A stretch of DNA of 32,000 nucleotides, taken from contig CAZXEQ010000003.1 of the NCBI GenBank assembly GCA_964640155.1, forward strand, positions 314,189-346,188. The letters run 5' to 3'. Under the pieces are notes generated by a model. That model worked only from the letters and a program-made list of their open reading frames with translations. It was not told where the DNA came from and did not search any database. Within the stretch, counting starts at the first letter, position 1. Every line of letters starts with the position of its first letter. This document shows, piece by piece, positions 18,201-32,000 of this stretch. Made by a program: the position numbers and the translations under genes. Source of the DNA: an uncultured bacterium. GTDB lineage: Bacteria; Auribacterota; JACPWU01.

Positions 18201-21200
18201 GAAACCAGACCGGGGGCCTTTATAGATGCTGTCCAGGCAGCACAAGTTCCTATTCGTGAAGTTTTTGAGGATGCATTTCTTTCATGTTTTGACATGATGC
18301 TAGGATCAAGCTTACGAAATAAGGGGGCAGATTTTGTTCGTGTTCACCTTCATGAGAATGCATTTGCCGATATGATTTTAATGTCAGCAGAAATGCTTTA
18401 TGAAGCGGGCTGTTATTTGGAAGCCTTAAACTTATTAAATCAGCGCTTAAATCAAATAAAAGAAAAAAAACATCTTATTGAATATCATCAATGTCGAGGA
18501 AAAATTCTTGCTGCTTTGAATCGCGATGATGAAGCTTTAAAAGCGTATGAAGAAGCAGTTAAAATTGATGCGAGTAAATTTGAACATTGGAGAGATTTGA
18601 TAGGAATTTATTATGAGAAGAAAGATCGTTCAAATACTATCCGTTGTATTAAGAGGGCGATGAGTGTAGGTGCGTCTGCTGAGACAAGTTATTGTGTGGA
18701 AGATATATTAAAACGTGTGTTGGGTGGTGAAGATGATTCCAAGCTCTGGTTAGCGGATCTTTTGAGCGATCATTCAATTGCAAGTCCAGTAGAAGGCATT
18801 GTTTTTGGTGGTGAAGGTGAAGAAAGAAATGTTCAATTTACGGCTCTTGAAGCGCAAGTAGAAAAAGTTTTTGGTGCAAAAATAAATTTTGTTTTTTCTG
18901 AAAATGATATTAAAACAAAAAACATCAGTGATGAAATCTTTAATAAGATAAAGACCGCTACAAAAACCAAGAGTCCTTATCTTGAAGAAGTTTTAGGTGA
19001 AGGAATGTTTAATGCAATGGTGCAAGAAGCCATGCGAGCAGATTGCCTAGGAGAAATTTTAAATCTTTTATTTTCTGAAGCAGCTTCAAATATTACTGTT
19101 TCAAAAGGGAAAGGAGTGGCAAAGGCAGGTCGTAGGAATGAAACCCTCAAAGTTGATGGACCCATCATAAATGCAAAATTAATTAACATGGGAGTTCAAG
19201 TGATTCAGAGACTTAAAATTCAAGGCGATACATCTCTTCTAGAGAAAATTGCTAAAGGCCCCTGGGTTGCTGAGACGCCAGAATTTCAGAAAGCACTTAA
19301 AGGTGAAGTTGTTAGAGTTTCTACTGCAGCACTCACACCCGATGCTCAAGGCCCACCTTCTCCAGGAAAAGATCCTGATGCTACCGCAAGCGAAGTTTCT
19401 GGAGATGAAGATGCTGCCATCCTAGCTGCTTTGAAAGAATGTATCCAAGCTTATAGTTCTAATCAGACGCTGTTAGCTTTTCAAAAAGCCCTTGAACTTG
19501 CTCCCCGGTTTAAAAATTTATCAAATAATCCTACGAAAAATCCAAAAGACTTAGAGACCTTTGCAGGAGAAGCAGCAGTGTTGATTGATATTCTGTCTAA
19601 GTATGGAGATATTCGTTTTGATGCCTCTTTGGAGGAAGGATTAAAGGCTGTTTTGGATTGGACTGTGCGTGCAGGTCCTGCTTTTAAAATTCTTCGAGTT
19701 CTTGCGGTACATTATCGTGGAAAACTTTATTTGAAGGCACAACAGTTTGCAAAAAGTCGTGCGTTTTTTGCAACTGCTTTGGCTTTGGATCCATCTGAAG
19801 TAAAGAATGTTTTGCCTGACATTGCTGAGGCGTACTTTCAGGAGATGCGAATGTCTAGTGACGTAAATCAAAGGAGAAAACTTGCCCAAGAAGCAATCCC
19901 TGTTATTGAAAATGATTCTTCATGCAACTCTCTTATTGCTTTGGGTTGGTTTTATGCTGAGGTTGGGAGTTATGACAAAGTTTTTGGTGTCATAAAGAAG
20001 TTGAATGCTCAAAGGGCAGTTTTGGCCAAAGGAGGCAAGGACCAGGAAAAAGTTGATGTCGATTTGATTTTTAGAAGCATGATGGCGCGATGTTTTGAAA
20101 CTTTGCGTGAAAAAGATATTGAAACGCAGGTGAGATTTATTCAAGTTCTCATAAGTAATCAGTTAGAGTCTGCCTTCGCAGAAACTTTAGAAAGAGGTAA
20201 GGAGCAAGGGCCTTTATGGACACAGGCTTTGATTATTGTGTTAAATCAGGAGATGTCTAGTACTGAAAAAGATCGATTAATTCAACTTTTAAAGGGAGCT
20301 GACTTTCGAGGAGCTGAAGAGCAGTGGCTAGAGATTTTGAGGCAAAAAGCAGATTTATCTGATGCTAAGAAAAAAGAAGCTTTTTTTAAATTTGCTATCC
20401 CTGTTTCGGCGCGTTGTTTTTCTCTTGAAGTAAGAGACTTTTTACAAACATTAAAGCCAGGGTTTTCTTCATCAAAAGATACTACGTTGGCTCAAGCCAT
20501 CGATCAGGCTGTTGCATCAATTGAAGGAAATCAGGCTATTGAAACAAAAATCTCTGAAGGAACCAGTTATTTAACCCTCAAAGAATGGCAAGCTTCTTTA
20601 AGAAGAGAATTGCCTTTGGCTGGAGAATGGGATGAATGGATGTTAGAAGTTGAAACTGCTAAATTTCTTGAAGAATTCCCCTGGATGAAGGCAAGAAAAA
20701 TTCGAGATGAACTGGTGAAAGCGCGTCAGTCAAAATTAGATATTGAAGCTGTGCGGTTCAATCTTAAAACTTTAGAAGAAGAGATACAAAGACAGTTTTT
20801 CAAGGATAAAAATTTAAGTCAACTCGAGTCCATTGAGCAGGAAATTCATAAATTGGTTGAGAATGGTCAATGGGATGAGGCTTTTGGCTATATTACTCTA
20901 GCCAGAGAAGGAAATGCAAAAAAGGGATTCCCGGGATATTATCAACTTTGGAGAAATGCATCAGGGGAGGAAAAGGATAAATATCTCAAGAAACTTCAGG
21001 AGATCAGAGATTTTGCAGAACATTGGTTCTTTTTATGGAGATTCGAAAGTGACTTGAAAGAAGCAGCAAAGGGTCAAAAAGGCTCGGCAATCGATATTGC
21101 TTATGAAAGAATGGTAAAGCCGTATATAGATACTCCCTCCAAATTAGCTTTGAAAGCTCCTGTCGATTTAGGAGAGATTGCAACCTGTTTTTATGTTGTA

Positions 21201-24200
21201 GGGGCAAAGCGAAAAGACACTGCTTTGCAGGATAAGGCCAGGGAAATTCTTGAATCCATCAATTTACAAGAAGTTTTAAAGACAGATTCTGTCAATATTC
21301 ATCGAGTAGTTTCGGCGTTTAAAAATATATTGGGGTATGAGAGGGCTAAAGCCGTTCTAGATATGATTGATCTGGCGATCATTAAGAAAGACCAGAGATT
21401 AAGAGGTCTTTATCTTTTGGTGTTTAGTCGTTTAAATGCTGAGGATGCTTTTGTAGTAGAAGCTGATTCTTTTGAACGAGATTTTCCAGATCATGCGCCT
21501 CATTATCTAGGATTAACCTATGAAGCACGTGAAAATCAGGAAAAAAGTCTCGCTTACTATGATCGAGCTTTTCAAGAAGCCCAAATTCATGGTTGGAGTG
21601 AAAAATATCTTAGAGAACACAGCCTCTGGTTGCGACCCGCTGGGATGGCGAGTGTAGAATATAGAATTAGAAGGCTTCGAGGGCTTGTAACTGATAGCGA
21701 ATATCATTGGGTGGAATTGATTGATGTGCTCTCATCAAGTGGTCGCTATTTGGAAAGTATGAGACTTGCAAAAGAAAAAATGAGAAGTGTTTCACCAAAA
21801 AATCAAATAGAGCTTCAATGTCATATTGGAGCTTGCTATGAAAACATGGAACGAAGAGAAGAAGCTTTTACTGCTTATGAAGCTGCGCGACTAAAATCTA
21901 CTGCGAATGTTGAGACATGGGATAGAATCCAAGTTTTTTGTGTGAGCAGTTTTCTTGTAAGACATCCAAAAGCAGGTGAATGGATAAAACATTTTTATAA
22001 TGAAGCTATTAAAACAAGAAATACAGGGATTATAGATTCCTTTAAAAATTATTTTAGAAAACATGGTCATCCCCTCGATGTAAATGCTTCAGGAGATATT
22101 ACGATCAGGTTTTTAGCGCTTGAAAAAATAGTGAAAGAAGCATGTGATTTGGAAATCACTATTCAGATGCCCTTAAATATAGCGTGTTCCTCTGTGGTAG
22201 ATCGAGAAATTGGCAAAATCGTAATCCCTCATTTAAAAGAAAAGTTTCCAAATCTTGTGGGGTTTATAGGAGATGAAATTATTTCTGGTCCTCACTTTGA
22301 TTTGGAGGGTAAATCTCCGGATTTTCTTCTAGGGCTTGAAGAAAAATTATCTAAGAAAGAGACAAATATTGCCGATGCTATTGAAGCAGGGACTTCCATT
22401 ATAAGTTCTGGTTTAGTGAAAGATGTTAAAGCATTGGTGAATTCACTTTGGACAAGGGTTCAGGCAGGAGATGCTCAAGCAAAGATTTGGTTAGGGGCTT
22501 TGGCTCAAGTTGAGGGAGTAACTGGAGATTTTGGGGATATTAGTATTGAACTTGAAGATGGAAATAAAATAATACGATTCAAGAAAATGGAAGAAGATCT
22601 CCAGAGAGATCATGGAGTACATGTTGATTTGGTAGTGAGAGTTTCTGAGTTTAAGGATTATGACCCGAGAGCCGTTTTAGATGAAATTGAAGGAAGAATG
22701 AGTGCGGATATTGAGGCAAGATTAGAAAGCTCTTCAAATGTGACTCGAGCATTATTTGAGAAATGGAAAAGTGCTCTTGTTTCAGGTTCATTAAAAGATG
22801 CTGGGGTTTTAATCAGGCCACTTTGGAAAAGAGTGAAGGCGGCAGATGCTCAAGCCAGACAATGGCTAGCAGATCTCGTGGGGCTTGAACAAGGCAGAGG
22901 AGATTTTGGAGAAATAAGGATTGAGCTAGGCGCTAAAGGGAATGAGCTTTGTTTAAATCAAGTCGGAGCTGACTTGATTGAAGAAAAGCTTTTGAGAGAT
23001 GACTCAAGAGATGAAATGCTTGCAGGGCTTCAAAATGCGTTAACATTTGGACTGGTGTCGAATCCTGCAATTTTAATTAATTCTCTGTGGGCGAAGGTCG
23101 TGAGTGGGAACCCTCAGGCTGCGTTAGCGCTTGGAAGAGTTGTTGAGACTGTTGCGGATGTAGACGGTGAATATGGCACGTTGAGGATTGAGACACGTGA
23201 GGGTGGTGTTAAAGTGTTACATCGTCGGGATTTCGAAGATCAATTTGAACAGGCTTTTGGTGAGAGAATGCCTTTTGTTCTTACTCCTGCCGAATTGAAA
23301 GAATCTGGTTTGAAAGATGTGCGTGCTGAAATAACTGCCTATGTTCAGCGTAAACTTTTAGAAAAAAGTGACGGTGAGACGCGAACAAAAGTACTTTCAG
23401 GCTTAAAAACTTTTTTTGATTTAGGGTTAGTTTCTACAGAAACTTTAATTGAATCTTTTTGGACTGGCGCAGTCAGTGGGGATGCTCAAGCAAGAGAAAG
23501 TTTATGTGATGTGGCTCAAATGGATGGAGTTGTAGGACCATTTGGGAAGTTAAACATTCAAGCAAGAGATGATGGTAGGAAAACTTTTCGATTTATCGAA
23601 ATTGAGGAGAATTTTGAGTCAACTTTTTCATCAAAGAGCAATCTTTCGGTTTCAATAGAAGAATTTAAAAAAACAGGTTTTGATACAGTTGAGGAAAGAA
23701 TAGCGGGATGTGTTTTAGAAATATTCAAAACTGCCGGGCAAAAGGATAAAGATGTTATTGCTGGGATTGATCTTGCGTTAGAAGCGGGGTTGATTAGAAA
23801 TGCTGGTGCAATAATGCGCACTCTTTTAGTAGAAGTTAAAATGGGGAATGATCGAGCTAGAAAATGGTTATGCGATGTGGCAAGACTTGAGCGAGCTAAA
23901 GGAGATTTTGGAGAAATAAGTATCGAATCGGATACCCGAGGAAAAGTTTTACGTTTTAAGGAAATGCAAAGACTTTTTAGAAATGCATTTGAAGAAGGAA
24001 TATCATTTGTTGAACCTATTGATCAATTTGAAAAAGAAGGTTTGGCATTAATACAAAAGAGAATTGTAGGTTTTGTAGAAAAGAAAATGGCTCAAAGTGA
24101 TGAAATGCGAGGGAAAATGCTCAAAGGATTTGAAGCTGCAGTTGCTTCTGGTTTAGTAAGCGATGCGGGAATTTTAGTGAGATCTCTTTATGAAAGAGTG

Positions 24201-27200
24201 CTTAAAGGTGAAAGTGAAGGGAGAGTTTTTCTGACAGAACTTGCGGCTCGTGAAAAAGTTTTAGGTGATTTTGGTGATATTGCAATTGAAAAAGTGGATG
24301 AACAAATTGTGATACGTTTTCGGATGACATTGGGTGAATCTACAGAGTTTACTGCTTCTCCAGAAGAGTTTGGTCAATTGAACTTGCCGAAAGCTAAAGA
24401 AGCCATTACCCAAAGTTTTGAATCAGATTTAATGAACGAAGACAGGGGAGTTCGAGAGGCTGCGATAACTCGTTTTAAACAAACACCCATTTTTTCACTA
24501 TTAGCGGAAAATCTCGTAAGATCTATTTGGGGGAAAGTGCTGCAAGGAAATGCGAGCGCAAGGCGAGCTTTATGCGTTTTAGCAAGAGATGCTGGTGTCA
24601 GAGGAGATTTTGAGGTTATTGAAATTTTAGATTCTCCTGCTTTAGGTGTAAAATTACGATTAAAAGATATGGAGAGTAAATTTAATGAGATTGTTGGAAA
24701 ATCAGTTACTTTTATGATGGATGTTGTTGAGTTTGAAGGAACTGGTTTGTCTCGCATTCAAGCGCAGATTATTTCAGGACTTGAAAGGGGATTGTTATCC
24801 GATGATGAGCCAATTCGAGCAGCAGCTTTTGCTGGATTCAAGAAAGCTTTAGAATTTGGGCTTGTAACCGATGCAAGTATTTTGGCTAAACCTCTGTGGG
24901 AAAAGGCTGCAAAGGGCGATGCTTCGGCAAGAAACGATTTGTGTGATTTCATTGCAGCGGGCCATTTAAAAGGAAACTTTGAAGGGTTTAGTGTTGTAGA
25001 AGATGGGAGAGCAGTAAGGCTAAGTGCAGCAGAAAAAGAATTAGGAGAGGCATTTCAAGGAATTAATCTTACGATTTCAATCGAAGAATTTAGAGCTTCA
25101 GGTTTAGCTGGAATACAATCAAAAATAATTCAGTATGTCATCGAAAAATTGGAAAGTGTTGATGAAGCTGAGCAAGATAAAGGTATTGTTGCGCTTCAAA
25201 AAGCTTTACAGACACATATATTGCCTGATGCACGAGCTATCGTGAGTCAGCTTTGGAAAAAAGTCGAAGCAGAAAATGTGCAGGCCAGAACAGCTTTGGT
25301 CAAACTTCTTTTAAATGTTGAAGGAGATTTTGAAGAAGTTGGGATTGAAACTGTTGGAGAGAAAAAAGTTTTGCACTTGAAGGAAGAGGAGAGAAAGTAT
25401 CAGGAAATATTTGGGGAAAAAATAAATATACTTGTTCCTGTTTCCAGATTTTTAAGTATTGGTTTAGATTCGACTGCTCAATCAATCATCCAATATACTG
25501 AGACGCGTTTATCTGTTGCGGATGAAAATGCTCGTACACGGATATTTGCTAAATTTAAAAATGCTATAGATCAGGGTTTGATTAAGAATGCGAATGATCT
25601 GGTTGGTGCTCTTTTAGATAGAGTCATTAGTGGTAAAGAAGAAGATAAATGGGCTAGAGTTGCTTTAAGCAGATTCTTATCTCTTAATTGGGCTGAAACT
25701 GAGTTTGATGGAATTGTTATTGAAAAGAGATCAAAAGGTAAAGGAAGTGATGAAGAAAAAGTAATTCATTTTTTAAGGATTGAAAATGAATCAAAGAAAA
25801 ATTTTTCTTTAGGTAAAAAGGATATTCTTTCCATTACTTTAGTGGAGCTAGAAACACAAGGGAGTGAAGGAATTCTTAATAAAATAATGGGTTTTATTAA
25901 GAGTGAACGAAAATATCTTCTTGAGATTTTAGATGAAGTAAAGTTAAGAGAATTATTGCGTGAAGGATTAGAAAATAGAGATATGGAAGATCTGGTTGTA
26001 GACTTATCTTATTTTGCAGCAAAGAAATTAAGAGAAACAAGGATTACATATCTTCCTTTAAATTCTATTCGTGAATTATTGAAGGATCAAAAATGCGAGA
26101 GAAAAGATCTTACACAAGTTTTAGAAATGTTGCAGTCTTTGAGGCGCTTGGCTGGCGGAGGAAGTGTAAGTTTTAAAAAAGTAGAGGAAGAAACGCAAGA
26201 TGTATTAGTTATTACTCTTCCTGCTTCAGTTCCAAGAGAAACAATGAAGCAATATTTAGACAGAGAAGATGTAAAGGGCCGTTTAGATCCTGTCATCTTA
26301 GGTTATGCAAATGAATGTGAATCTAAGAAGGCGCCTATTTATAGAGTTATTTTAAGTGATGGTTCTCTAGTAGATAGTGGGATTGTGGATCGTGGAACTT
26401 TAAAAAGTAAACAGATTTTAAAACGACTTCCTCAGAGAGGATATGCAAGTTTGGAGAAAATAGAAGGAGAGAAGGGAGGTGTATTAGTATTTAATCTTTC
26501 AGATCTGATTTCAAAAGAAACTATAAAGCAATATTTTGAAGAACAAAGGGTAAAAAGTTATTTAAAATTTATTATTGAGAGATATGTGGATGAATATGGG
26601 TTTGAGAAAGCGCCTTCTTATCAAGTCCTTTTAAGTGATGGTTCTCAAATAGATGATGAGGGTGTTAAAGAAGAAATAGAAGTTATCATTAAAGCTATTA
26701 TTAATGAAAGAAAAAGGATGGCTGAGGAAGCTGCGGCTTCTAAAAATGGTGAAACAGCAATTGATGGTAATGGATTGAATGGTGGCGCTGGAACCAATGG
26801 TGCTAATGGCGCAAATGATGGTATTACTCATGTAGAAGCGGGGAGTGTTGGTGTAGAAGTGGTTATTGGAACTGAGACTGGAGCATCTGAAACAGAAACG
26901 GGTGATGGACGAGGATTTTCTAGTTTACAAAAAGAAATCTATAATAGACCTGTAAGAGAAGGGTTAAAGAGTGGGGGGTGGGTCGGAGCAACTTTTGATA
27001 GAGAGAAAGTCACGACTGTATCTCGGATTGCCAATGATTCTGGAGGGGAAGACTTTAATTCTACTCAAACTTTAAATGCTAATGATCAGAAAACGTTAAC
27101 TCAAGTTATTGAATCTTTATCTGAAGAAGACAGGGCTCATCTTCAAGGATTAGAAGAGTTAGGGGGCAAAGTCACGGTTGTTTTTATTGATGGGCTGGAT

Positions 27201-28988
27201 GAAGCAGTAAAGGCAGAACTTCGTGAAAAAGGGAAAACAGTTCCTTCTGATTGTTATGGAAGTCATTATGGTTTATCACGTCCACAAATTTATCTAGATA
27301 GAAATTTATTAAAAGATCCTATTCAACTGCGAATACATCTGCATCATGAGTTAGCCGAGCGTGAAGCTGTGATTCGTGCTCTTGTCTCACCAGGGTATCC
27401 CGATTGGCGTAAGAATCGAACAGATCCTAATGTTGTTAAAATTATTCACACAATGACCCATCAAAAACACAATGAACTTCTTCTCGAAGAGAGAAGAATG
27501 CCTTCGTCACCAGCGTATGGAAAAGAAAATGCTGAGGTGGAAGCTTTACTTCATCAGCTTGACCATTCAAAAAATATTTTTTGGATGTATCTTAAGAATG
27601 ATGCCAAAGCTCGCCAAATTATGAGAGAGAGGCTTTATAAGTTACTAATTCAGGGACATTTGCGTGAAAGGATTAAGTCCAGACTTTCTAGTCAAGGTTT
27701 GCAATCTATTACAGTGACAATGGGCGGAGCATCTTTATGGCGTTCAGAAAAGGATACGACTTTAGATGTAGATATATCAATTCTTACCGATGGCGATGTG
27801 AAGGATCAGGGAATATGGAGATCGGATGATTTTCTAGATATTGACTTTTCAATTTTAGGGCGTGAGGCAATTCGTCGTAAAACAGAAACAAGATTTTTAG
27901 GGCTTTTGGAGTTAACAAGCCTCACCATTATTGGCGATGCAGGATCTAGGGATTATTCTGTCGAAGACTTAGCTGAAGTGGCTGAACTTTTCATGAGAAA
28001 AGGGGACAGTGCATCTTCTCTTGGTGACACAGAAAAACAGGGCAAGAAATATTTGATGGCGTACGTACTTCTACATCATTTCTTGAGTGAAAAAGTGCGT
28101 CGAAAAGTTTCGGATTGGATTTTTGATGGGATACCATTTGAGACTTATTTCCTGAAATATTTTAAAGGTGAAATCAGTCATTTGCCATGGGGATTGGAAG
28201 TAAGTGATAGAGAAGATCGTTTCTCGGAGGTTTCTGGCATTTTATATAGAGAGCTCTCAATTTTGAGAACGAATGCTATTTTTTCTCAGCTGAGAGATAT
28301 TCTTAAGTCTGACGGGACGGAATTTATAGAAGCATTAGATAAAAAATTGGTAGATATTCTTAATCATGATTATGCTCATTTAGATGAGCGTACGAGAGAT
28401 CGTTTGATAAGTGGGGTTCTGAAAAAAATTTATGAATCGAAACATCCACTTGTAATCTCTCAAGAATTTGAACGGCTTCTCAGAAAAGAAGGTTTCTCTG
28501 AATTTGGAATTGCAGGTCTTGAAGCCTTGGCTGGAACGAAATTTTTTATACAAATAATGCATCAGGTTGGAGAAGGACGCGGATGGTATGAAGATAGTCA
28601 AATGCATAGGCAGTTTATAGAAATATATATGCGATCCCTGCTAAAGGCACAAGGTGTAGATATGCCATCTGGAAGTGCAAATAAATTGATTGCTTATGCT
28701 CTGGCGAAGTTAACAAATGATTCAGCTTCCTCATTGCCCAACGAATCTTTTGATGCATTTTTGAGAAGAAAAGGATTAGAATTTCTTTCGGATCCTTGTA
28801 CAACGTCAGATCAAAGATCTCAGAGGCTTCGCCAGCTTGCCGAACGTATTGCTGTTTTATGCCCAGATGCTGAAACACCTATGATCTCAAAATTGGTTCA
28901 AAGCGAATTAGCCCGTATGTTGCCCCCAGCTCGGGTTTCAAGTATTTCGAGGACTCCTCGAGAAGCCGCATTTGCTCAAGCGGCTTAA
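9228..28988 (+). CDS. Giant multidomain protein, 6,586 aa (signal peptide; methyltransferase, HD and nucleotidyltransferase modules; helical super-repeats; tandem modules)
   Basis: This is a single open frame of 19,761 nt in AT-rich DNA. The longest antisense ORF inside it is 127 aa. The likely true start is the ATG at 9246 (MKKLITLLLCVSLL...), and the GTG at 9228 is the longest-ORF start. The stop is TAA at 28986-28988. Confidence 0.9.
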   Translation: MVNTNLMKKLITLLLCVSLLDIQGLTLGYTETQNPSQSTELNSTLLSSWFEITSQSKTFSWSNPGIILIRDLHADGEAQLKIAKGLEAMTRQTGSTLVLEEGAVGKIDTGFLGTFPNQSIREEITKEYVKSGWVRGPEFLSIARFGELDLELRGVEDQNLYQENFAQYREVMKHKEEIETGCILLKKELIKAKKKFCSVEFRKFEEKREQFQDNQIAFDEYVKFLLHYSFSPFQHPHLSLFSDLMKKKSHINEVSAEKEKNRLVEELSQKLDKDSLGSFIRASLEYRFGRMSAQEFNQYLSWQAEKIGKNIKNYPELYKLIEWIKIQGEVDGVKLLEEIKSLEEVNINKLAKTTQEKKLKDLTRQIQAIQSFLSLELSRQDWEKYLKNTKGYDALKISQELGSILGEKPILGLEKINGILVKARKFYELARARDQIIAQNSIRSMKEVSRQRPARTTILVVGGFHATGVQEILNAQGVNYIELTPKMNHIPNASLYLTRMMDPRFKIGTIPLPCLFQEVVQALAVTVSQDAQKKIGILYINALKGRLLLELKGDTAGVQKRLLEALGLWEKQRGELSDGDKKIFKILEEEIKNPSSTESAASDISKDEIRRWMEGKEYTELHANVLIKILETFYSERKDLIEYAKDLYQKKWGRHKVRRQIFIHQDGMAMAPVLTALNKMEVFKLFEDGRSVSMGEIIRTTKGSPGYLHVAMRLFVSQGWMTRKGEEGTDNLTYTLTEDGTYILSLLDYYGPVAEFIDQAVGIDDYLFGKSRAPPADGQKKSYAQLIELSKNQWNLPPETDSRKKMLRERVIQQLNGMLLGPTMVALGMRGVFDQFNPETHSVTINQIQGNAKHLKEAFTLLEQQGWLTRNGDVFTLTHDGRSAAVLASAYGVTTSYLPLFSKLKELLKGQSREALFPRDKNNNETHVNRPMNVWASGGAHIAYFKEADKMIIEIFNRPLEEQPRGIADMGCGDGAFLIHLHEIVMRTKRGEKIKETLTKILELEREPALIKDGGAKHQEYLLAKAEYEKYKLVIVGADFNKEPRIITQGNLEKAGIKDAKIIFGNINDPKKYAEDLRALGLDPKSLLHVRSMLDHNRPYVTPKNTDHIRADRKADSGSYVNDGQVIPNNQLQQNLVEHLEGWQEHCVGDAGLLVIELHTIPPELAATKIGDTLATPYDAHHGFSDQYIAEIPTFVGAATEAGLELVEQKAFPTTTPEAATVSINYFRASAKKKVQVSWARSFGKVYAVHDGPDGIYQALRSEITKKDPQFNFDLLEKAYRFGAEKYRDIRHDGRPYIVHPLEIALYLVRVLGIVDQDAILAAILHDLVEDENVLLNEIKEMFGENVRALVDDLSEDSSYLEEQDKVYKAQNGQELTGKLAMKIEHIERVDKKSGKLCIIIKIVNRLHNLLSNEYPVRKANYGMNLLEIQRWRVFLDHHVSDIPPPLMEDIRYFLGRNKKSPDLTPEGAEITVTHDERNAPLGKRIKDSEVTELSIDEDGSLKAALVIHDSNKSESERIRDSRKWKVEDVKKAGTKLLSARNKLMQTLEARLANPESSLAKTYQYLIAAGKIENQEAFKNLLLEKAKQMSLLVVGDEQDLLSAVIHQDGPYMHCRRGVSGRPPALWMGYITLKRMSEEMLTRALLDEALHVAFPEEEHRDKKGNGTLLHDQELYEHCDQILRFANIDYIYQKMYQAQQGIIGNLEILRMDIDTISEEDILALKKIADEHPSDRISLDSREEIERCIGISRRFFDEARRIVQKLPSYLEDDVQEIAEEIRDAIRISSEEMNKNLDLAYRQWLEHRFFENPGESQPITPPAAFCQFDAAPNSLDAIMTEIRKAYGKNRFDEVLRLGSSLADAIQKGLAIPDDVHVMIGKGFLDRARRMKTQGKIENAIRDFDRAIESFVTMRDKGAVKVGEASVEKPVLIEEVSREIVVYAEGYVEKEKENSREIPLEVHFALGRAYLWSAICEKSEGNIAKAMQHCARAMDFLTHYAAATQTPVVRGAALLGARKAPTQGFNDNAMLYLSQAMIENGIIQMFAGSYDAARQIFQQTLTSNTRLGEKKAELQKFVQICKDFISVDKEIVQFSGSKDADASSLLGKLADLESRTRNNEDLPCAAAQIFLYRWMIYWKLKDASQAETNFQKALESRDDRFLIAFRSLINAMSKAKVLWNRDFLQAIAAKKGQPFLRRFLREIVKDYYRSLDLKEFREAVMEVLGFKSFREYVEWLLQEEQERAVVGVAPKKADVGSPINHPGLVAPLIEAIQVLPSDDERKVLAARPDISATPVLQAALRGEIRPIADVIRISLELRDELEKIQKIDVEVGDQIEIRQKCIDIAKKFKDVWLFTESDLVSAFWDKFFTVFSGEMNPDIEEALKIGLAWIERHSHKSHEHQRSYMYYQCGQIYYMTNLRAEATACFQKVIEQSSSAELKIRSYFSLGSLLYLEVRDLEDGAEKTSKLKQAKDLVARTLTQEALKIGAIDASVGHMMLSYICAELCEYKEAYEHLMNAKTYPGNFLYAKRKFLKSFGERFESLTSGEDLKVYKDFLVFACKQENQELRDQLIRFRSVKNRAWVRAVMEVLSNKGIALKQREAAIAFLRGMDLETESAGLIGILREQAGFALKQQPHFLWEGLELLRTCPTPEAKAFIQEILDNGNYAKAAGYRVEKINTIAKARDQYESLPDVFEVSDERAKTSKYCLTRKEWSQMLLDYWPSDSEWDEYVLERESSKLSDKFERLSVHEIRKQIEKAREEGLAYDAIIGQLEALNVSRINVNEELKNSQIRLARAQKLMDEGNFSEAAVMLYEILTGRSRVRVVGLEMIIAHERNGEDKDVFVVVLKAWELLERANYFMETRPGDSMPTLEYAKALIEKWKDKDEELRTKDPVDIMEVVRALYFLERPQDALRVLELIPPVFFDNYGYFALWRLRLMFKTDDDRFLGEYERVKEMTDPKAKNLLGKFCRERGLFSESMEAFQDAYTGADFKLTNTNETRPGAFIDAVQAAQVPIREVFEDAFLSCFDMMLGSSLRNKGADFVRVHLHENAFADMILMSAEMLYEAGCYLEALNLLNQRLNQIKEKKHLIEYHQCRGKILAALNRDDEALKAYEEAVKIDASKFEHWRDLIGIYYEKKDRSNTIRCIKRAMSVGASAETSYCVEDILKRVLGGEDDSKLWLADLLSDHSIASPVEGIVFGGEGEERNVQFTALEAQVEKVFGAKINFVFSENDIKTKNISDEIFNKIKTATKTKSPYLEEVLGEGMFNAMVQEAMRADCLGEILNLLFSEAASNITVSKGKGVAKAGRRNETLKVDGPIINAKLINMGVQVIQRLKIQGDTSLLEKIAKGPWVAETPEFQKALKGEVVRVSTAALTPDAQGPPSPGKDPDATASEVSGDEDAAILAALKECIQAYSSNQTLLAFQKALELAPRFKNLSNNPTKNPKDLETFAGEAAVLIDILSKYGDIRFDASLEEGLKAVLDWTVRAGPAFKILRVLAVHYRGKLYLKAQQFAKSRAFFATALALDPSEVKNVLPDIAEAYFQEMRMSSDVNQRRKLAQEAIPVIENDSSCNSLIALGWFYAEVGSYDKVFGVIKKLNAQRAVLAKGGKDQEKVDVDLIFRSMMARCFETLREKDIETQVRFIQVLISNQLESAFAETLERGKEQGPLWTQALIIVLNQEMSSTEKDRLIQLLKGADFRGAEEQWLEILRQKADLSDAKKKEAFFKFAIPVSARCFSLEVRDFLQTLKPGFSSSKDTTLAQAIDQAVASIEGNQAIETKISEGTSYLTLKEWQASLRRELPLAGEWDEWMLEVETAKFLEEFPWMKARKIRDELVKARQSKLDIEAVRFNLKTLEEEIQRQFFKDKNLSQLESIEQEIHKLVENGQWDEAFGYITLAREGNAKKGFPGYYQLWRNASGEEKDKYLKKLQEIRDFAEHWFFLWRFESDLKEAAKGQKGSAIDIAYERMVKPYIDTPSKLALKAPVDLGEIATCFYVVGAKRKDTALQDKAREILESINLQEVLKTDSVNIHRVVSAFKNILGYERAKAVLDMIDLAIIKKDQRLRGLYLLVFSRLNAEDAFVVEADSFERDFPDHAPHYLGLTYEARENQEKSLAYYDRAFQEAQIHGWSEKYLREHSLWLRPAGMASVEYRIRRLRGLVTDSEYHWVELIDVLSSSGRYLESMRLAKEKMRSVSPKNQIELQCHIGACYENMERREEAFTAYEAARLKSTANVETWDRIQVFCVSSFLVRHPKAGEWIKHFYNEAIKTRNTGIIDSFKNYFRKHGHPLDVNASGDITIRFLALEKIVKEACDLEITIQMPLNIACSSVVDREIGKIVIPHLKEKFPNLVGFIGDEIISGPHFDLEGKSPDFLLGLEEKLSKKETNIADAIEAGTSIISSGLVKDVKALVNSLWTRVQAGDAQAKIWLGALAQVEGVTGDFGDISIELEDGNKIIRFKKMEEDLQRDHGVHVDLVVRVSEFKDYDPRAVLDEIEGRMSADIEARLESSSNVTRALFEKWKSALVSGSLKDAGVLIRPLWKRVKAADAQARQWLADLVGLEQGRGDFGEIRIELGAKGNELCLNQVGADLIEEKLLRDDSRDEMLAGLQNALTFGLVSNPAILINSLWAKVVSGNPQAALALGRVVETVADVDGEYGTLRIETREGGVKVLHRRDFEDQFEQAFGERMPFVLTPAELKESGLKDVRAEITAYVQRKLLEKSDGETRTKVLSGLKTFFDLGLVSTETLIESFWTGAVSGDAQARESLCDVAQMDGVVGPFGKLNIQARDDGRKTFRFIEIEENFESTFSSKSNLSVSIEEFKKTGFDTVEERIAGCVLEIFKTAGQKDKDVIAGIDLALEAGLIRNAGAIMRTLLVEVKMGNDRARKWLCDVARLERAKGDFGEISIESDTRGKVLRFKEMQRLFRNAFEEGISFVEPIDQFEKEGLALIQKRIVGFVEKKMAQSDEMRGKMLKGFEAAVASGLVSDAGILVRSLYERVLKGESEGRVFLTELAAREKVLGDFGDIAIEKVDEQIVIRFRMTLGESTEFTASPEEFGQLNLPKAKEAITQSFESDLMNEDRGVREAAITRFKQTPIFSLLAENLVRSIWGKVLQGNASARRALCVLARDAGVRGDFEVIEILDSPALGVKLRLKDMESKFNEIVGKSVTFMMDVVEFEGTGLSRIQAQIISGLERGLLSDDEPIRAAAFAGFKKALEFGLVTDASILAKPLWEKAAKGDASARNDLCDFIAAGHLKGNFEGFSVVEDGRAVRLSAAEKELGEAFQGINLTISIEEFRASGLAGIQSKIIQYVIEKLESVDEAEQDKGIVALQKALQTHILPDARAIVSQLWKKVEAENVQARTALVKLLLNVEGDFEEVGIETVGEKKVLHLKEEERKYQEIFGEKINILVPVSRFLSIGLDSTAQSIIQYTETRLSVADENARTRIFAKFKNAIDQGLIKNANDLVGALLDRVISGKEEDKWARVALSRFLSLNWAETEFDGIVIEKRSKGKGSDEEKVIHFLRIENESKKNFSLGKKDILSITLVELETQGSEGILNKIMGFIKSERKYLLEILDEVKLRELLREGLENRDMEDLVVDLSYFAAKKLRETRITYLPLNSIRELLKDQKCERKDLTQVLEMLQSLRRLAGGGSVSFKKVEEETQDVLVITLPASVPRETMKQYLDREDVKGRLDPVILGYANECESKKAPIYRVILSDGSLVDSGIVDRGTLKSKQILKRLPQRGYASLEKIEGEKGGVLVFNLSDLISKETIKQYFEEQRVKSYLKFIIERYVDEYGFEKAPSYQVLLSDGSQIDDEGVKEEIEVIIKAIINERKRMAEEAAASKNGETAIDGNGLNGGAGTNGANGANDGITHVEAGSVGVEVVIGTETGASETETGDGRGFSSLQKEIYNRPVREGLKSGGWVGATFDREKVTTVSRIANDSGGEDFNSTQTLNANDQKTLTQVIESLSEEDRAHLQGLEELGGKVTVVFIDGLDEAVKAELREKGKTVPSDCYGSHYGLSRPQIYLDRNLLKDPIQLRIHLHHELAEREAVIRALVSPGYPDWRKNRTDPNVVKIIHTMTHQKHNELLLEERRMPSSPAYGKENAEVEALLHQLDHSKNIFWMYLKNDAKARQIMRERLYKLLIQGHLRERIKSRLSSQGLQSITVTMGGASLWRSEKDTTLDVDISILTDGDVKDQGIWRSDDFLDIDFSILGREAIRRKTETRFLGLLELTSLTIIGDAGSRDYSVEDLAEVAELFMRKGDSASSLGDTEKQGKKYLMAYVLLHHFLSEKVRRKVSDWIFDGIPFETYFLKYFKGEISHLPWGLEVSDREDRFSEVSGILYRELSILRTNAIFSQLRDILKSDGTEFIEALDKKLVDILNHDYAHLDERTRDRLISGVLKKIYESKHPLVISQEFERLLRKEGFSEFGIAGLEALAGTKFFIQIMHQVGEGRGWYEDSQMHRQFIEIYMRSLLKAQGVDMPSGSANKLIAYALAKLTNDSASSLPNESFDAFLRRKGLEFLSDPCTTSDQRSQRLRQLAERIAVLCPDAETPMISKLVQSELARMLPPARVSSISRTPREAAFAQAA
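9246..9311 (+). other. N-terminal signal peptide or signal anchor of the giant protein
   Basis: MKKLITLLLCVSLLDIQGLTLG has a basic n-region, a hydrophobic core and a small-residue c-region. LLLC is not a canonical lipobox. Confidence 0.6.
9415..10640 (+). other. Possible Tiki/TraB/ChaN-superfamily-like domain with a long helical insert
   Basis: IILIRDLHADGEAQLKIAKGLEAM...TLVLEEGA (9421-9540) resembles the N-lobe. ARARDQIIAQNSI plus TILVVGGFHATGVQEILNAQG (10515-10660) resembles the R(D/E)xxM... and VGxxH blocks of that superfamily. This is a by-eye match only. Confidence 0.3.
11208..12915 (+). other. Two winged-helix-like modules followed by a class I SAM-dependent methyltransferase domain
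   Basis: WH-like 1: MAPVLTALNKMEVFKLFEDGRSVSMGEIIRTTKGSPGYLHVAMRLFVSQGWMTRKG. WH-like 2: GPTMVALGMRGVFDQF...NAKHLKEAFTLLEQQGWLTRNG. MTase motif I is GIADMGCGDGAFL (12126-12164), with VIVGADFN, IIFGNINDP and LLHVRSMLDHN following. Confidence 0.65.
13044..13475 (+). other. RelA/SpoT-type HD domain ((p)ppGpp-hydrolase / Mesh1-like)
   Basis: LLEKAYRFGAEKYRDIRHDGRPYIVHPLEIALYLVRVLGIVDQDAILAAILHDLVEDE...MFGENVRALVDDLSE...IIIKIVNRLHNL aligns block for block with the SpoT N-terminal hydrolase domain (HP...HDxxED...DRxHN). The H-D codons are at 13203-13208. Confidence 0.8.
16088..18960 (+). repeat. Protein-level super-repeat, copy A (about 1,080 aa, TPR-like helical)
   Basis: Ordered anchors are shared with copy B. 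TPVLQAALRGEIRPI matches TPEFQKALKGEVVRV. LTRKEWSQML..SEWDEYVLERE matches LTLKEWQASL..GEWDEWMLEVE. GNFSEAAVMLYEIL matches GQWDEAFGYITLA. YLEALNLL...EALKAYEEA...FEHWRDL matches YLESMRLA...EAFTAYEAA...VETWDRI. NVQFTALEAQVEKVFGAKINFVF matches ITIRFLALEKIVKEACDLEITIQ. Confidence 0.75.
19275..22260 (+). repeat. Protein-level super-repeat, copy B
   Basis: The same anchors as copy A occur at in-frame offsets of 3186, 3240 and 3273 nt (1062, 1080 and 1091 aa). The nucleotide sequences have diverged. Confidence 0.75.
22426..25940 (+). repeat. Ten tandem copies of a roughly 120-aa module of unrecognised family
   Basis: Signature: (L/F/I)(W/L/Y)xxVxxG(D/N)xQAxxWLxxLA...GDFGxIxIE...hxhxhxEF...G, ending in a GL(V/I)xxAxx helix. 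The first signature residue falls at 22446, 22821, 23085, 23457, 23823, 24186, 24525, 24894, 25251 and 25611. The spacings are 125, 88, 124, 122, 121, 113, 123, 119 and 120 aa. Confidence 0.8.
26140..26660 (+). repeat. Two copies of a roughly 93-aa module
   Basis: GGSVSFKKVEEETQDVLVITLPASVPRETMKQYLDREDVKGRL...KKAPIYRVILSDGSLVD matches YASLEKIEGEKGGVLVFNLSDLISKETIKQYFEEQRVKSYL...EKAPSYQVLLSDGSQID. An identical 18-nt run TTTTAAGTGATGGTTCTC occurs at 26350-26367 and 26629-26646. Confidence 0.8.
26731..26912 (+). repeat. Gly/Asn/Ala/Thr/Glu-rich low-complexity linker
   Basis: AAASKNGETAIDGNGLNGGAGTNGANGANDG...GTETGASETETGDGRG, with reiterated AATGGTG-like DNA units. Confidence 0.7.
27660..27860 (+). 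other. Pol-beta-superfamily nucleotidyltransferase motif
   Basis: A helix then strand gives ITVTMGGASLWRSEKDTTLDVDISIL (G-G-x-S at 27723-27734, D-x-D at 27765-27773). This fits hG[GS]x9-13Dh[DE]h. A third acidic strand, FLDIDFSIL (27837-27845), follows. Confidence 0.5.
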
Positions 28989-29095
28989 TTTTGTGAAAAC
29001 GCTGTCTTCTAAATGTAACCCGTGTATTTCCTACTCTCTGTCAGACGAATTTGTAGAGAAAATTAAATGTGCAAAGAGCAGGGAATAAAAAGTAT

Positions 29096-32000
29096 ATGAA
29101 GAAATATTTTTGCAAATTCATAACCATTCTTTTATCTCTTTTTCTCTTTTTTGATTTTACGACAAGAGAAGCACAACTTTTTGCTTCAGATTCTTCAGAT
29201 CGATTGAAAGCAGGAGAGATTTTAAAAGAGTCGATTGACTTTAAAATTTCTGACTTTCAAAAGGCACCTCCAGTAGCTATTCAAGGTATTCTCACGTCTT
29301 TTCTAAAGTATTTCTTTTTGCAATCTTATGAATATTCTATTTCCTTGCTCACGCACCGGCATATCTCGTTTCAAGGGATTCCTGTGCCTTCACTTTTTGA
29401 TGAGATGATGGAGACTTTATGGGAATTAATGAGAGAGCAGGAGTGGAAAGGTTTAGCTCGAAGATATATGAGAGAGCTCCGCTTGCGGTTAGTTGAGGAA
29501 CATCAAGGGGATGTTAAAAAGGTGCAAAAGGAGCTTTTGAGAAATATAGATATTTGGGAGGGGAATAAATTAAAACTCTCTCAGAAGAAAAAGGGCTTTG
29601 CTGTTCTTTTTGAAAGTATAGATGATGAAGAGGAAGAGAATTCAGGGCTCTCACAAAAAGAAAAGGATTTCTTTGCGCTTCTAAGGCAAGAGGCCTTAGG
29701 ACAAAAAGGGCCAGCAGCTCAGTTACTTCCAGAGCAACTAGAGAAAGTGATACATAGAAGTATGGCTCATGCGAAGACCGTTATGAAAATATTTGAAAGA
29801 TTTCTACAAAATCAAGTTGCACAGGTGAGGCCCATTTATGAAAGAGCAAAAGTAACTCATGACGAAGAAATAAAAGCTGGAGAGTTAATATTTGAGATTT
29901 TAGATTTTAGGCCTGATTTTAAGAGAGATCCTCCCGATTTTTCAGGTCAGAAATTTGCCGAAGAACTTTTTGAGAAAAAGATTAAAAATTTTGGAGGCCG
30001 TAAATATTTATTTGATCAGATTTTGTTTGAGCTGCGTAATTTAGATGATATGGATTCTAGGGCGTCATTAGTATTGATGCATGTTTTGGCCTGTTTTTTT
30101 AAAGAGGATTATTTATCGAAACAAGGGGGAGTGACTTTATCCAGGGAACAATTTGAAAGACTTTGGAGGATTTATCGTTCAATCGACTATGATTGTGCGG
30201 GAGTCGCCATGGGTTGCATTGCGCAAGTGATTTATGATCCAAGAATTAAAGTTGTAGGATTTACTCAAGATCAAATCCATTCACGGGCAAAAAAAGATTT
30301 TGAAATATTTTTAAAACGATTCATACACAATCCCAATCCGCGCACTTACAATCTATCTATTTATTGGTCACAGTATTTTTTGACTCAGGATTCTGAGTGG
30401 CTTGATGAAGTGATTGAAAAGATGAATTCTTTTGGTCGTCGGTCAGAAAAATTTAATCTAATTTTACGGGGATTATTGTCTAAGGTTTGTCAGGATGGAA
30501 AATTACGGGAAAATATTAATGAGTTTGCGAATAAATTTATTCAACCTTTAGATATTGCTGTATCCACCAATACTCCTGAAGATGCATGGAAAGCTATTTG
30601 GGGCACCACCGATCAACCCCATCTTGAAAATGCGAAAAAATTTCTAGAAACAGTTACTTCTTTAAGAGAGCTTTATCCTTATCAATTGACTTCGTCTGAT
30701 GCTACACCTCCACTTCAATTTGCTATTAAAAATGGTATTTATTTCCCAATTGGAGGAGGGCTTTATGTGACCCCGATAACTCAATCTTTTAGGCGACATA
30801 CTGTTTTTAAATTAACCAATAGTGGACAGGTTACTTTTGCTTTTGAAGTATTGATTCCTGGTGAAAATACTGATCGACGTCTGATTGCAACTGAACAAAG
30901 GTGGAAGGTTTCATCGGAGTTGCTCGAAAGCTTTCCTCTGCATAATTATTGTCCTACTCCTCTCGCAATGATGGATTTGCCAAAGGGTTCATACTCTCTT
31001 TATGGCCAGGAAATTGAATTTAGTTCTAAAACTCCTTTGTCGGTCATGGGATTTCAATATGGAGAACAAGAAGATGGGAAGCGCCTAGACTTTATAACAA
31101 GACCCATATTGGATGAAATTGCTAAAGAATCAGGTTGGGATTCAGATGCTTTGTCTTTTGAAGTTGCCAAACAAGTAACCGAACTTACCGCAGCAACTCA
31201 TGCTCTGGGGTATGTGGGGCATAATGGTAAATCTTCTGATCATCATACTGGAAACTTTAGATTGATTTTGACAGGAGATAGAGCTAGGCCCATCAAAATA
31301 AAGTTGGTTGGGGATTTTGAGGCTTTCACCAAAGTTAGTTATGAAGATCAGATTAATAAAATGGGGAATGATGTTAATAATATTGTTCCCAGACTTAGCC
31401 TAATTTTGGATATGGATGCAGAAAAACTTAAAAAGATGTTTGAAGAAGCTAGAGATTTACCCCATATACGTGAAGTTTCTGATAGAAAAAGAAAAGAATC
31501 GCTCAAAAATGATTTTCGAGCTCTTCTAGTAATAAATCCAGATAACAAGGATCATTTAGAAGAATTATTAGCTTCTGTAAATGTCCGTGATTGTGAGCAA
31601 TCTGTTCGAGAACAAAATAATGTAATAACTCTTGGTTTTTTCTTTGAGGATGAATTTTTAGATAAGCATGGAGGTCTTGTTTTATCTCAAGCCCAGTATG
31701 ATCGGTTATGGAAGATTTATAATGAAGCGGCAGTAGCTCCAGAATATGCGGCGATGATATTGGGATATATCTCTAAAGTTTTAAATGATGATAGGATCTC
31801 AATTGAAGGTCAGCCTGATAAGAAACAAGTTCGAAAAACATCTGCACAAAAGATAGTTTCTGCTTTAGAGATTACATCTCCTACAGATAATCCTAAACAG
31901 GCTTGGAAAGCTATTTTTGGAACAACTGATCAGCCTCATGTTCAAAACACTCAAAAGTTTATAGAAATGGCGACACTCTTAAGAAAAATTTTCCCTTATG
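29096..32000 (+). CDS. Large secreted protein, 3'-truncated by the window end (at least 968 aa), with a roughly 500-aa internal repeat unit containing a kinase-like core
   Basis: The ATG at 29096 is preceded by AGGGA. I translated it by eye with no stop codon through 32000. The ORF track reports no closed + strand ORF in this 2.9 kb. The N-terminus MKKYFCKFITILLSLFLFFDF is signal-like. Confidence 0.85.
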   Translation, partial: MKKYFCKFITILLSLFLFFDFTTREAQLFASDSSDRLKAGEILKESIDFKISDFQKAPPVAIQGILTSFLKYFFLQSYEYSISLLTHRHISFQGIPVPSLFDEMMETLWELMREQEWKGLARRYMRELRLRLVEEHQGDVKKVQKELLRNIDIWEGNKLKLSQKKKGFAVLFESIDDEEEENSGLSQKEKDFFALLRQEALGQKGPAAQLLPEQLEKVIHRSMAHAKTVMKIFERFLQNQVAQVRPIYERAKVTHDEEIKAGELIFEILDFRPDFKRDPPDFSGQKFAEELFEKKIKNFGGRKYLFDQILFELRNLDDMDSRASLVLMHVLACFFKEDYLSKQGGVTLSREQFERLWRIYRSIDYDCAGVAMGCIAQVIYDPRIKVVGFTQDQIHSRAKKDFEIFLKRFIHNPNPRTYNLSIYWSQYFLTQDSEWLDEVIEKMNSFGRRSEKFNLILRGLLSKVCQDGKLRENINEFANKFIQPLDIAVSTNTPEDAWKAIWGTTDQPHLENAKKFLETVTSLRELYPYQLTSSDATPPLQFAIKNGIYFPIGGGLYVTPITQSFRRHTVFKLTNSGQVTFAFEVLIPGENTDRRLIATEQRWKVSSELLESFPLHNYCPTPLAMMDLPKGSYSLYGQEIEFSSKTPLSVMGFQYGEQEDGKRLDFITRPILDEIAKESGWDSDALSFEVAKQVTELTAATHALGYVGHNGKSSDHHTGNFRLILTGDRARPIKIKLVGDFEAFTKVSYEDQINKMGNDVNNIVPRLSLILDMDAEKLKKMFEEARDLPHIREVSDRKRKESLKNDFRALLVINPDNKDHLEELLASVNVRDCEQSVREQNNVITLGFFFEDEFLDKHGGLVLSQAQYDRLWKIYNEAAVAPEYAAMILGYISKVLNDDRISIEGQPDKKQVRKTSAQKIVSALEITSPTDNPKQAWKAIFGTTDQPHVQNTQKFIEMATLLRKIFPY
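30091..30690 (+). repeat. Internal repeat of the downstream protein, copy 1
   Basis: FFKEDYLSKQGGVTLSREQFERLWRIYRS...AMGCIAQVIYDPRIKV and TNTPEDAWKAIWGTTDQPHLENAKKFLETVTSLRELYPY. Confidence 0.75.
30740..31330 (+). other. Protein-kinase-like fold core (motif-level call)
   Basis: A Gly-rich loop PIGGGLYV (GGG at 30752-30760) is followed 19 aa later by TVFKL (Lys at 30809-30811). A catalytic-loop-like HALGYVGHNGKSSDHHTGNFRL follows (D at 31238-31240, N at 31253-31255). Then comes a DFG-like IKLVGDFEAF (D at 31313-31315). Confidence 0.4.
31631..32000 (+). repeat. Internal repeat of the downstream protein, copy 2 (cut by the window end)
   Basis: FFFEDEFLDKHGGLVLSQAQYDRLWKIYNE...AMILGYISKVLNDDRISI and TDNPKQAWKAIFGTTDQPHVQNTQKFIEMATLLRKIFPY. 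DNA similarity to copy 1 is still visible around GC(A/T)TGGAAAGCTATTT. Confidence 0.75.

Follow-up and report, generated by a model that had tools for sequence, protein, structure and literature searches.

The DNA analysed here is a stretch of 32,000 nucleotides (nt) from an uncultured bacterium that probably belongs to the Auribacterota (assembly GCA_964640155.1, contig CAZXEQ010000003.1, positions 314,189 to 346,188 of the forward strand). This stretch, called the window in the following, ends within a large open reading frame, ORF2, that starts at position 29096 directly behind a giant gene on the same strand. Our work has identified ORF2 as a genuine gene of 4,267 residues under purifying selection and as a smaller relative of the giant proteins with multiple enzyme domains that are known from Omnitrophota. 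Taken as a whole, the observations are in our opinion best explained, with moderate confidence, by an exported mosaic protein that carries four probable ATP-dependent transferases and that is probably co-transcribed with the giant gene. ORF2 would then be a mosaic of modules, four of which are units made of an alpha-solenoid-like and a kinase-like domain; the bulk of the protein would be exported, and either stay tethered by an uncleaved leader or be released; and it might work in the manner of the Archaeovorin-type giants, as a battery of modifying enzymes delivered to the cell surface or to another cell.

Only about the first quarter of ORF2 is visible in the window: the full gene is 4.4 times longer than this part and extends 9.9 kb past the window. 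The Logan contig SRR8893623_166047 (L002) matches positions 19096-32000 of the window with 0 mismatches in 12,905 nt and contains the whole of ORF2. Similarly, the best match of our HMMER scan, a protein of 4,267 amino acids (aa) designated P0007 for which an NCBI source is listed as well (its longest recorded contig has 357,497 bp), is identical to the window translation over residues 1-968. The original prediction had proposed that the gene continues past the window, and had named an ordinary-sized protein with a stop codon just beyond the edge as the outcome that would speak against this idea. L002 excludes such a stop: the protein has 4,267 aa rather than 968, its true end is located, and four units can be counted in it. 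An orthologue is encoded by a metagenome-assembled genome (MAG) of Ca. Auribacterota (L005), with 73% identity over aa 1002-2831 and 66% over aa 3577-4267. The ratio of nonsynonymous to synonymous substitutions between the two genes (dN/dS) is 0.20, with a dS of 0.82, over 1,796 codons, and ORF2 is therefore a real, constrained gene. A block of about 745 residues (aa 2832-3576) is present in P0007 and missing from the L005 orthologue, which we take as evidence of the gain or loss of a module within an otherwise constrained gene.

Metagenome assemblies may collapse or join repeats, and ORF2 does hold internal repeats, so that its length might in principle be an assembly artefact, the result of a chimera, or the remnant of a decaying pseudogene. 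We consider this extremely improbable: Logan and NCBI independently provide the identical sequence; the repeats share no more than 37-52% identity at the protein level and are thus too diverged for mis-assembly; ORF2 is cut by the edge of the window and not by the end of a contig; and both the dN/dS value of the orthologue pair and the very high AlphaFold2 (AF2) confidence for the core of the repeat unit (see below) argue against it.

The layout of ORF2, as deduced from self-comparison and from an iterated profile, is as follows.

29096..32000, + strand: ORF2, first 968 codons; the full gene has 12,804 nt (4,267 aa) and ends at the window-equivalent position 41899
29096..29185, + strand: leader, aa 1-30
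aa 31-~300: N-terminal region
29378..29668, + strand: ORF2 aa 95-191, a module common to aa 510-607 of the giant protein (35% identity, E about 1e-9 to 6e-11)
aa ~302-845, 845-1294 and 1294-1845: three tandem units with lengths of about 545, 450 and 550 aa
29948..30595, + strand: alpha domain of unit 1, aa 285-500, containing FFKEDYLSKQGG..LWRIY
30563..31525, + strand: kinase-like core of unit 1, aa 490-810, starting with AWKAIWGTTDQPH
31505..32000, + strand: start of unit 2, with a shortened alpha domain (aa 804-929) and 39 core residues from aa 930
aa 1844-2035 and 3576-3771: the two ORF2 copies of module X
aa ~2050-3500: central stretch of ~1,400 residues without a relative among the 150 proteins compared
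aa 3861-4267: fourth unit, C-terminal

Each unit consists of an all-alpha domain of ~200 aa that is followed by a core of ~300 aa. The copies of the core are located at aa 490-810, 930-1282, 1513-1830 and 3932-4222, and their pairwise identity is 37-52%. The internal repeat that had been noticed within the window, a unit of roughly 500 aa restarting at about position 31,630, could be confirmed: residues 846-968 match both residues 331-388 (38%, E 2e-12) and residues 452-529 (37%, E 2e-18), ~65 extra residues separate the two aligned blocks in the first copy, and the period is ~515 aa here. The description of the protein as repeat-built applies in part: There are four units, but they do not form a pure array, as ~2,000 non-repeat residues separate the tandem units from the C-terminal one. 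The whole 4,267-aa protein had no match in Pfam at E ≤ 0.1, and the segment-wise search gave only sub-threshold GT2 matches at aa ~2385-2650 (E 0.0085-0.013). A GT-A domain in this segment, for which DADTIV was picked out by eye, is not claimed on the basis of such matches. Likewise, a second kinase-like domain that seemed to be present by eye at aa ~2040-2300 (WLDPMPAKNVLV...RFIDFAPS; 'DPMPAKN...IDF') is not supported: it had no match in Pfam, and its alignment to the core family with hhalign gave an E-value of 0.43.

To judge from its structural model, the core is a kinase-fold enzyme module that has been overlooked by every curated library tried. The enzyme-like cores that had been suspected from the sequence thus have a protein-kinase-like fold in the model, and conserved catalytic Asp, Asn and Asp residues. 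First, the AF2 model of the core, run on an alignment of 32 sequences (A1), has a predicted local distance difference test score (pLDDT) of 96.7 and a predicted template modelling score (pTM) of 0.93, and it exhibits the bilobal fold with a beta-rich N-lobe and a helical C-lobe that defines the protein-kinase-like superfamily. Second, a Foldseek search of the PDB with this model resulted in 15 matches at E ≤ 1e-3, and the top ones listed are all kinases with a probability of about 1.0. The best match is 7szd_A (PRPK/Bud32; E 5.6e-5, template modelling (TM) scores 0.40/0.51), 8k20_B and 3en9_A were matched as well, and further matches include 6g18_v (a chain of the late pre-40S ribosome, at rank 6), CaMKII, PknB, PknG and Wee1. 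SelO (6eac_C) follows at rank 17, just above the cut-off of E 1e-3. Finally, the matches listed from the viral model library BFVD are nearly all kinases, with two unrelated exceptions. At the level of the sequence, the kinase families of Pfam matched neither ORF2 (E ≤ 1) nor P0007 (E ≤ 0.1) nor any of the 32 aligned cores (E ≤ 0.01), NCBIfam had no match to the core, and the sequences of the PDB gave only chance-level matches to protein and profile, e.g. 2omk at E 0.047.

The active site was deduced from the conservation among 120 family domains.

30785..30796, + strand: SFRR motif, aa 564-567 (S in 114/120, F in 116/120, R in 112/120 with K in 7 more, R in 117/120)
31238..31255, + strand: catalytic loop D715-H-H-T-G-N720, a D-x4-N loop (D in 107/120, N in 120/120)
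31313..31321, + strand: D740-F-E, a DFG-like metal-binding motif (D in 119/120)

Other near-invariant residues of the core are R663 (119/120), R524 (118/120) and E584 (113/120). In an hhalign alignment, D715, N720 and D740 fall on D166, N171 and D184 of PKA, and VMGFQY falls on the hinge strand. None of the four copies in ORF2 has lost the Asp and the Asn of the catalytic loop or the DFG-like Asp, and each unit is therefore probably an active ATP-dependent transferase and not a dead scaffold. Moreover, the fact that the cores are only 37-52% identical suggests four diverged specificities on one polypeptide chain.

Several observations speak against such an assignment. The TM-scores to kinases are modest (0.3-0.5) at sequence identities of 10-16%, and the alignment to PKA has a low probability (3%, E 0.014) and was made with a manually entered PKA sequence. 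The Lys of the 'E-x-K-I-P-G' strand (core position 97) is present in 82/120 domains, but the four copies of ORF2 all have Leu or Met in its place, and canonical anchoring of ATP is therefore not assured. The SFRR motif may provide a candidate phosphate-binding dyad that possibly replaces this strand Lys. A 'migrated lysine', i.e. a WNK-like swap between the core positions 83 and 97, was also considered and rejected: the two positions do not covary cleanly (class counts 10, 13, 28 and 69).

It is possible, though in our view not the probable case, that the cores are not protein kinases at all and that they catalyze AMPylation, glutamylation or the phosphorylation of small molecules or glycans, or serve as a pseudokinase scaffold. 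The Leu or Met at the position of the strand Lys in all four copies would fit this idea, as would the SFRR dyad together with R524, E584 and R663, which have no counterpart in canonical kinases, the presence of SelO among the structural matches, and the fact that the Pkinase model or any other Pfam model matched 0/32 members. A dead scaffold would not be expected to retain the catalytic Asp, the Asn and the DFG Asp, as the cores do, and the nearest structures are PRPK/Bud32 and then the pre-40S-bound chain 6g18_v, which are small atypical kinases or ATPases by activity. This alternative concerns only the reaction and not the fold, and it overlaps with our reading of the cores as ATP-dependent transferases.

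The comparison with Bud32/PRPK reveals both common and distinct features. Both have a compact bilobal fold in which no long activation segment is obvious, and they share the D-x4-N loop and the Asp of a DF(G)-like motif. In contrast to Bud32/PRPK, the core has a helical cap added at its N-terminus and an additional strand that bears SFRR, its strand Lys is not conserved, and it has no sequence-level match to Pfam, NCBIfam or the PDB; moreover, it is a module in giant proteins that are predicted to be exported and not a stand-alone housekeeping enzyme. The AMPylase SelO, the glutamylase SidJ, HopBF1, NleH/OspG and LegK are atypical kinase-fold enzymes or secreted effector kinases. The core shares with them a kinase fold with a non-canonical active site, and an exported kinase would fit an effector that acts where ATP is available. 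However, no sequence similarity to these proteins was detected, there are no secretion-system genes in the window, and the resemblance is one of logic only.

The second component of the unit, the alpha domain (aa 285-500), has 13 helices and a pLDDT of 84.6 in the AF2 model. It is located directly N-terminal of the core in all 13 other carrying proteins or locus ORFs. As the structural matches are limited to weak ARM/HEAT-like ones (E about 0.08 or above), the model tentatively suggests an alpha-solenoid-like domain and nothing more specific.

An exhaustive HMMER scan of 1.84 billion representatives identified 140 proteins at E ≤ 1e-3; the family of the core domain thus comprises at least 140 clusters at 50% identity, and nearly all 140 proteins align over aa ~510-750 of ORF2. 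Most of them have a single copy of the core, four proteins have two, and only ORF2 has four. The named members are hypothetical or misnamed giant proteins of MAGs from Chlamydiota, Omnitrophota and Elusimicrobiota, and the partner domains of the core include LOG/SLOG, several methyltransferases, NUDIX, an M23 peptidase, Pkinase with HATPase_c, and an alpha/beta-hydrolase. A scan of GTDB genomes with a tighter alignment of 8 core sequences detected 10 core loci, seven in Omnitrophota and one each in Auribacterota, Planctomycetales and Elusimicrobia. With a word-indexed homologue search, whose index saturates at 8,000 candidates, the 968-aa fragment had 0 matches and the core profile had 2, so that only the exhaustive HMMER scan revealed the family. 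The fragment also had 0 matches in scans of GTDB genomes and JGI metagenomes; the representatives of GTDB do not include the source genome, and the contig of the only close relative starts at aa ~1002.

How might such a protein leave the cell? The N-terminus of ORF2 reads MKKYFCKFITILLSLFLFFDF and had been described as signal-like. Indeed, it has the features of a Sec-type leader: a basic n-region (MKKYFCK) is followed by the hydrophobic run FITILLSLFLFF and then by D...QLFA|S, and this is the only clear hydrophobic segment in ORF2; a marginal stretch at aa 1218-1236, beside the second core, scores 1.69 at a threshold of 1.6. The leader probably acts as a Sec signal peptide or as a signal anchor. 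Since no other clear membrane segment is present, we infer that the bulk of the protein is exported, either tethered or released, and we regard export as plausible. N-terminal hydrophobic leaders are present in 28 of the 69 long carriers of the core. Moreover, a motif D/N-I-A-W/F/Y-A was found in 15 of 118 apparent full-length N-termini (mean of 2.4 and maximum of 8 in shuffled sequences), mostly right after a hydrophobic run of ~14 aa, e.g. AFLLQDIAWANPD; its carriers include P0009, P0013, P0019, P0023, P0054, P0061 and P0136. The motif D-I-A-W/F-A looks like a signal-peptidase site. In the ORF2 locus itself, three neighbouring genes (29096-29185; 9246-9320; ~23230-23424 of L002) have leaders with a basic start and an Asp behind the hydrophobic run, and the shared leader may be a family-specific export or sorting signal.

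Again, there are arguments against export. The candidate cleavage site QLFA|S, with Ala at -1 and Leu at -3, is not a canonical A-x-A site. Kinases, S-adenosylmethionine (SAM)-dependent methyltransferases and HD hydrolases need cytoplasmic cofactors, and these needs argue for action inside another cell or else for no export, rather than for action in the periplasm or the medium. Finally, a 2026 preprint on long proteins of Omnitrophota favours a membrane-anchored, cytoplasmic interpretation of the multi-enzyme types (10.64898/2026.06.07.730766). It is thus conceivable, although we consider it rather unlikely, that ORF2 is not exported, that its leader tethers the protein to the inner membrane or is unused, and that the modules act inside the producing cell as a regulatory or metabolic scaffold. 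The partner domains that need ATP, SAM or nucleotides, i.e. the cores of ORF2 and the methyltransferase and SpoT-like HD domains encoded upstream, would be at home there, the same preprint interprets many of the long multi-enzyme proteins as anchored in the membrane, with their bulk in the cytoplasm, and 17 of the 69 long carriers have neither a leader nor a segment resembling a transmembrane (TM) helix. On the other hand, the leaders of related carriers end in A-W/F-A and resemble signal-peptidase sites, and ORF2 has no second clear hydrophobic segment, only the marginal one, that would bring the chain back. According to the positive-inside rule, a single N-terminal segment after Lys-Lys is oriented N-in, C-out, and MKKYFCK before the single segment of ORF2 thus predicts that the bulk is outside.

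The third aspect of our interpretation, the relation of ORF2 to the giant gene, requires a look at the locus.

9228..28988, + strand: upstream giant gene, 6,586 aa; the ATG at 9246 gives the leader MKKLITLLLCVSLLD
9132..9159, + strand: promoter-like site of the giant gene, TTGATT-16-TATATT, which includes TATAGGCTATATT
10755..11048, + strand: giant aa 510-607, corresponding to ORF2 aa 95-191
26898..27503, + strand: module X in the giant protein, aa 5891-6092 (37% identity to the ORF2 copies, E 9e-29)
28989..29095, + strand: intergenic gap of 107 nt, from the stop of the giant gene (28988) to the ATG of ORF2 (29096)

The gap of 107 nt, the ATG at 29096 and the 968 codons that are open up to base 31999 were all reproduced on the sequence. 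A weak Shine-Dalgarno-like site (AGGGA) is located 11 nt upstream of the ATG of ORF2, an in-frame stop lies 13 codons upstream, and GTG at 29069 is an alternative start. The absence of a hairpin from the gap, which had been seen by eye, agrees with our analyses: consensus scans of positions 28500-29500 detected 0 terminator-like and 0 sigma-70-like sites, and the folding of the gap RNA is not better than that of shuffled sequences (z = -1.1). Rfam and tRNA scans of the whole window revealed nothing.

The giant protein and ORF2 have two modules in common. In addition to the N-terminal one, this is module X of ~200 aa, which is characterized by the motifs GRGFS, FIDGLDxAV, DCYGSHYGLxRxQIYLD and LHHExQER, has no match in Pfam, and is also present in P0022, P0035 and P0039. 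With 70% identity, its two copies in ORF2 are much closer to each other than the kinase-like units are. A kinase-like core was not found in the giant protein (HMM search with --max, E ≤ 10). Downstream of ORF2 follow a small ORF (68 aa in L002, 22853-23059; MRMNRKSIKYYDWEETRSEQVSP...) that is conserved in L005 (~7560-7760), and a third large gene, ORF3. The L005 copy of ORF3 (at least 950 aa) resembles aa 8-507 of the giant protein (26%, E 4e-41), and over its first 54 residues, the copy in L002 shares 46% identity with that in L005 (E 6e-10). The order of ORF2, the small ORF and ORF3 is kept in L005; there, the region upstream of ORF2 is missing from the contig, and the large gene downstream is paralogous to the N-terminus of the giant protein.

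The layout of the locus corresponds to that of an operon: The giant gene and ORF2 are on the same strand, they are separated by a short gap, and the consensus scans detected neither a terminator nor a promoter between them. The two flanking large genes have promoter-like sites. That of ORF3 agrees with the sigma-70 consensus in 11/12 positions, has an extended -10 region (L002 23175-23203) and is conserved in L005 (~7920-7950). The site of the giant gene is weaker overall, but its palindromic -10-like element TATAGGCTATATT (9147-9159) occurs a single time in the window (0.09 expected) and nearly matches TATATGCTATATT in the promoter-like site of ORF3. Upstream of ORF2, a consensus scan identified nothing comparable to either of them. 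The simplest reading of these consensus matches is that the giant gene and ORF2 form one transcription unit and that ORF3 is transcribed separately, and ORF2 is probably co-transcribed with the giant gene.

Two points weigh against co-transcription. First, our scans cover sigma-70-type promoters and simple intrinsic terminators, and the promoters of the PVC group may differ from these. Second, homologues of the two genes are not neighbours in the distant relatives: five of five distant carriers of the core are single genes amid housekeeping genes without an AprA-like giant next to them, with the limit that only 43 nt of the upstream side are visible for one of them (P0010), where the contig (L003) ends. 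Both points would also support the idea that ORF2 is transcribed alone and that it came to lie behind the giant gene by chance, through a local accumulation of paralogues and not as a functional pair, and so would the promoter-like site of ORF3, which indicates that the cluster is not one long operon. We take this idea as a serious possibility, yet regard it as less than probable: It has to be reconciled with the short gap that lacks a hairpin and a promoter, with the promoter-like sites and common -10 element of the large genes on either side, with the two modules common to the giant protein and ORF2, and with the order of ORF2, the small ORF and ORF3 in L005. For the claim that the two genes make up one functional locus, the orientation, the bare gap of 107 nt, the two shared modules and the paralogous third gene with synteny in L005 are favourable, whereas the pairing is not found in any of the five distant carriers; one functional locus is thus weakly supported.

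The giant protein itself contains AprA_N, WH_AprA and AprA-MT2-like methyltransferase domains (two matched stretches each), a SpoT-like HD domain and TPRs. AprA_N, winged-helix and methyltransferase domains followed by the SpoT/RelA-type HD domain are encoded at positions 11187-13463 (giant aa ~654-1412), the methyltransferase with a total E-value of 6e-81, and this set of domains suggests the modification of nucleotides or small molecules. Diverged repeats with 25-33% identity and a period of ~120 aa cover aa 4370-5560 of the giant protein (22335-25907), and the strongest GC skew of the window (0.33-0.41) is found in the same region. The relatives of the N-terminus of the giant protein are likewise multi-enzyme giants, and their domains include PGM, amino-acid kinase, PPDK and Pkinase. 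At one metagenomic locus with a relative (L001, 3586-17020), two consecutive giant genes on the same strand encode proteins of 2,088 aa (NTP_transferase) and 2,339 aa (PGM-like); the 2,339-aa protein is related to the N-terminus of the giant protein of the window, and a radical-SAM/B12 gene and a PIN/RHH pair are located upstream.

The closest parallel to these proteins are the Archaeovorin-type multi-enzyme giants of Omnitrophota (West-Roberts et al., bioRxiv 10.1101/2023.11.21.568195), which correspond to the 'multi-enzyme' class of long proteins in a later study (10.64898/2026.06.07.730766); one giant category in the former work starts at 30,000 aa. As in the Archaeovorin-type giants, many unrelated enzyme domains and a helical-repeat scaffolding are combined on one chain with an N-terminal leader; the relatives of ORF2 and of the giant protein carry methyltransferases, NUDIX, Lysine_decarbox/LOG, PPDK, PGM, HAD and TPR domains; and most of the genome matches of the core domain lie in Omnitrophota. 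Internal domain repetition is common in the multi-enzyme class as well (10.64898/2026.06.07.730766). ORF2 itself has the four kinase-like cores, the sub-threshold GT2-like stretch and ~1,400 residues without a match; the mosaic pattern is clear in the giant protein and the relatives. There are also differences: ORF2 and the giant protein are about ten times smaller (4.3 and 6.6 kaa), ORF2 has no internal transmembrane clusters, neither a SecA-like nor a C39 peptidase domain was detected, and the host, to judge from the single locus L005, is probably a member of the Auribacterota in the PVC group and not of the Omnitrophota. The repeated kinase-like domain is not described in the text of either of the two papers, which was searched for 'kinase'.

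ORF2 also has features of a further group of proteins. Polyvalent or polymorphic multi-domain conflict proteins of phages, conjugative elements and bacteria have been described by Iyer, Burroughs, Aravind and colleagues. Shuffled enzyme mosaics, modules common to neighbouring paralogues, and the gain or loss of a block of ~745 aa are reminiscent of these proteins. However, the flanking genes are housekeeping genes, with no mobile-element context and no visible toxin/immunity pair, ORF2 is under purifying selection, and its synteny is kept with the relative.

It is tempting to speculate even further that the core represents an unrecognised branch of the kinase fold that serves as an exported effector module in the PVC group, Omnitrophota and Elusimicrobiota, that the Lys is dispensable in this branch with SFRR taking over its role, and that ORF2 is a 'kinase array' with four specificities that has the D-I-A-W/F-A leader and shares one promoter with the methyltransferase/HD giant. 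This scenario is quite unlikely to be correct in its entirety. If it were true, the chemistry of the new branch could be non-canonical, e.g. nucleotidylation or the phosphorylation of substrates other than proteins.

The giant proteins of uncultivated bacteria from the PVC group and Omnitrophota are largely uncharacterised, and their function has been argued from the few domains that are recognised by Pfam. Our work now provides a modelled fold and a candidate active site for a large unannotated piece of such giants. With its tractable size and with units of ~520 aa that fold confidently in silico, ORF2 offers a practical entry to the biochemistry of the whole class. Moreover, the Auribacterota have so far been interpreted as free-living fermenters (PMC9324843), and multi-enzyme giants are now seen in this group, too.

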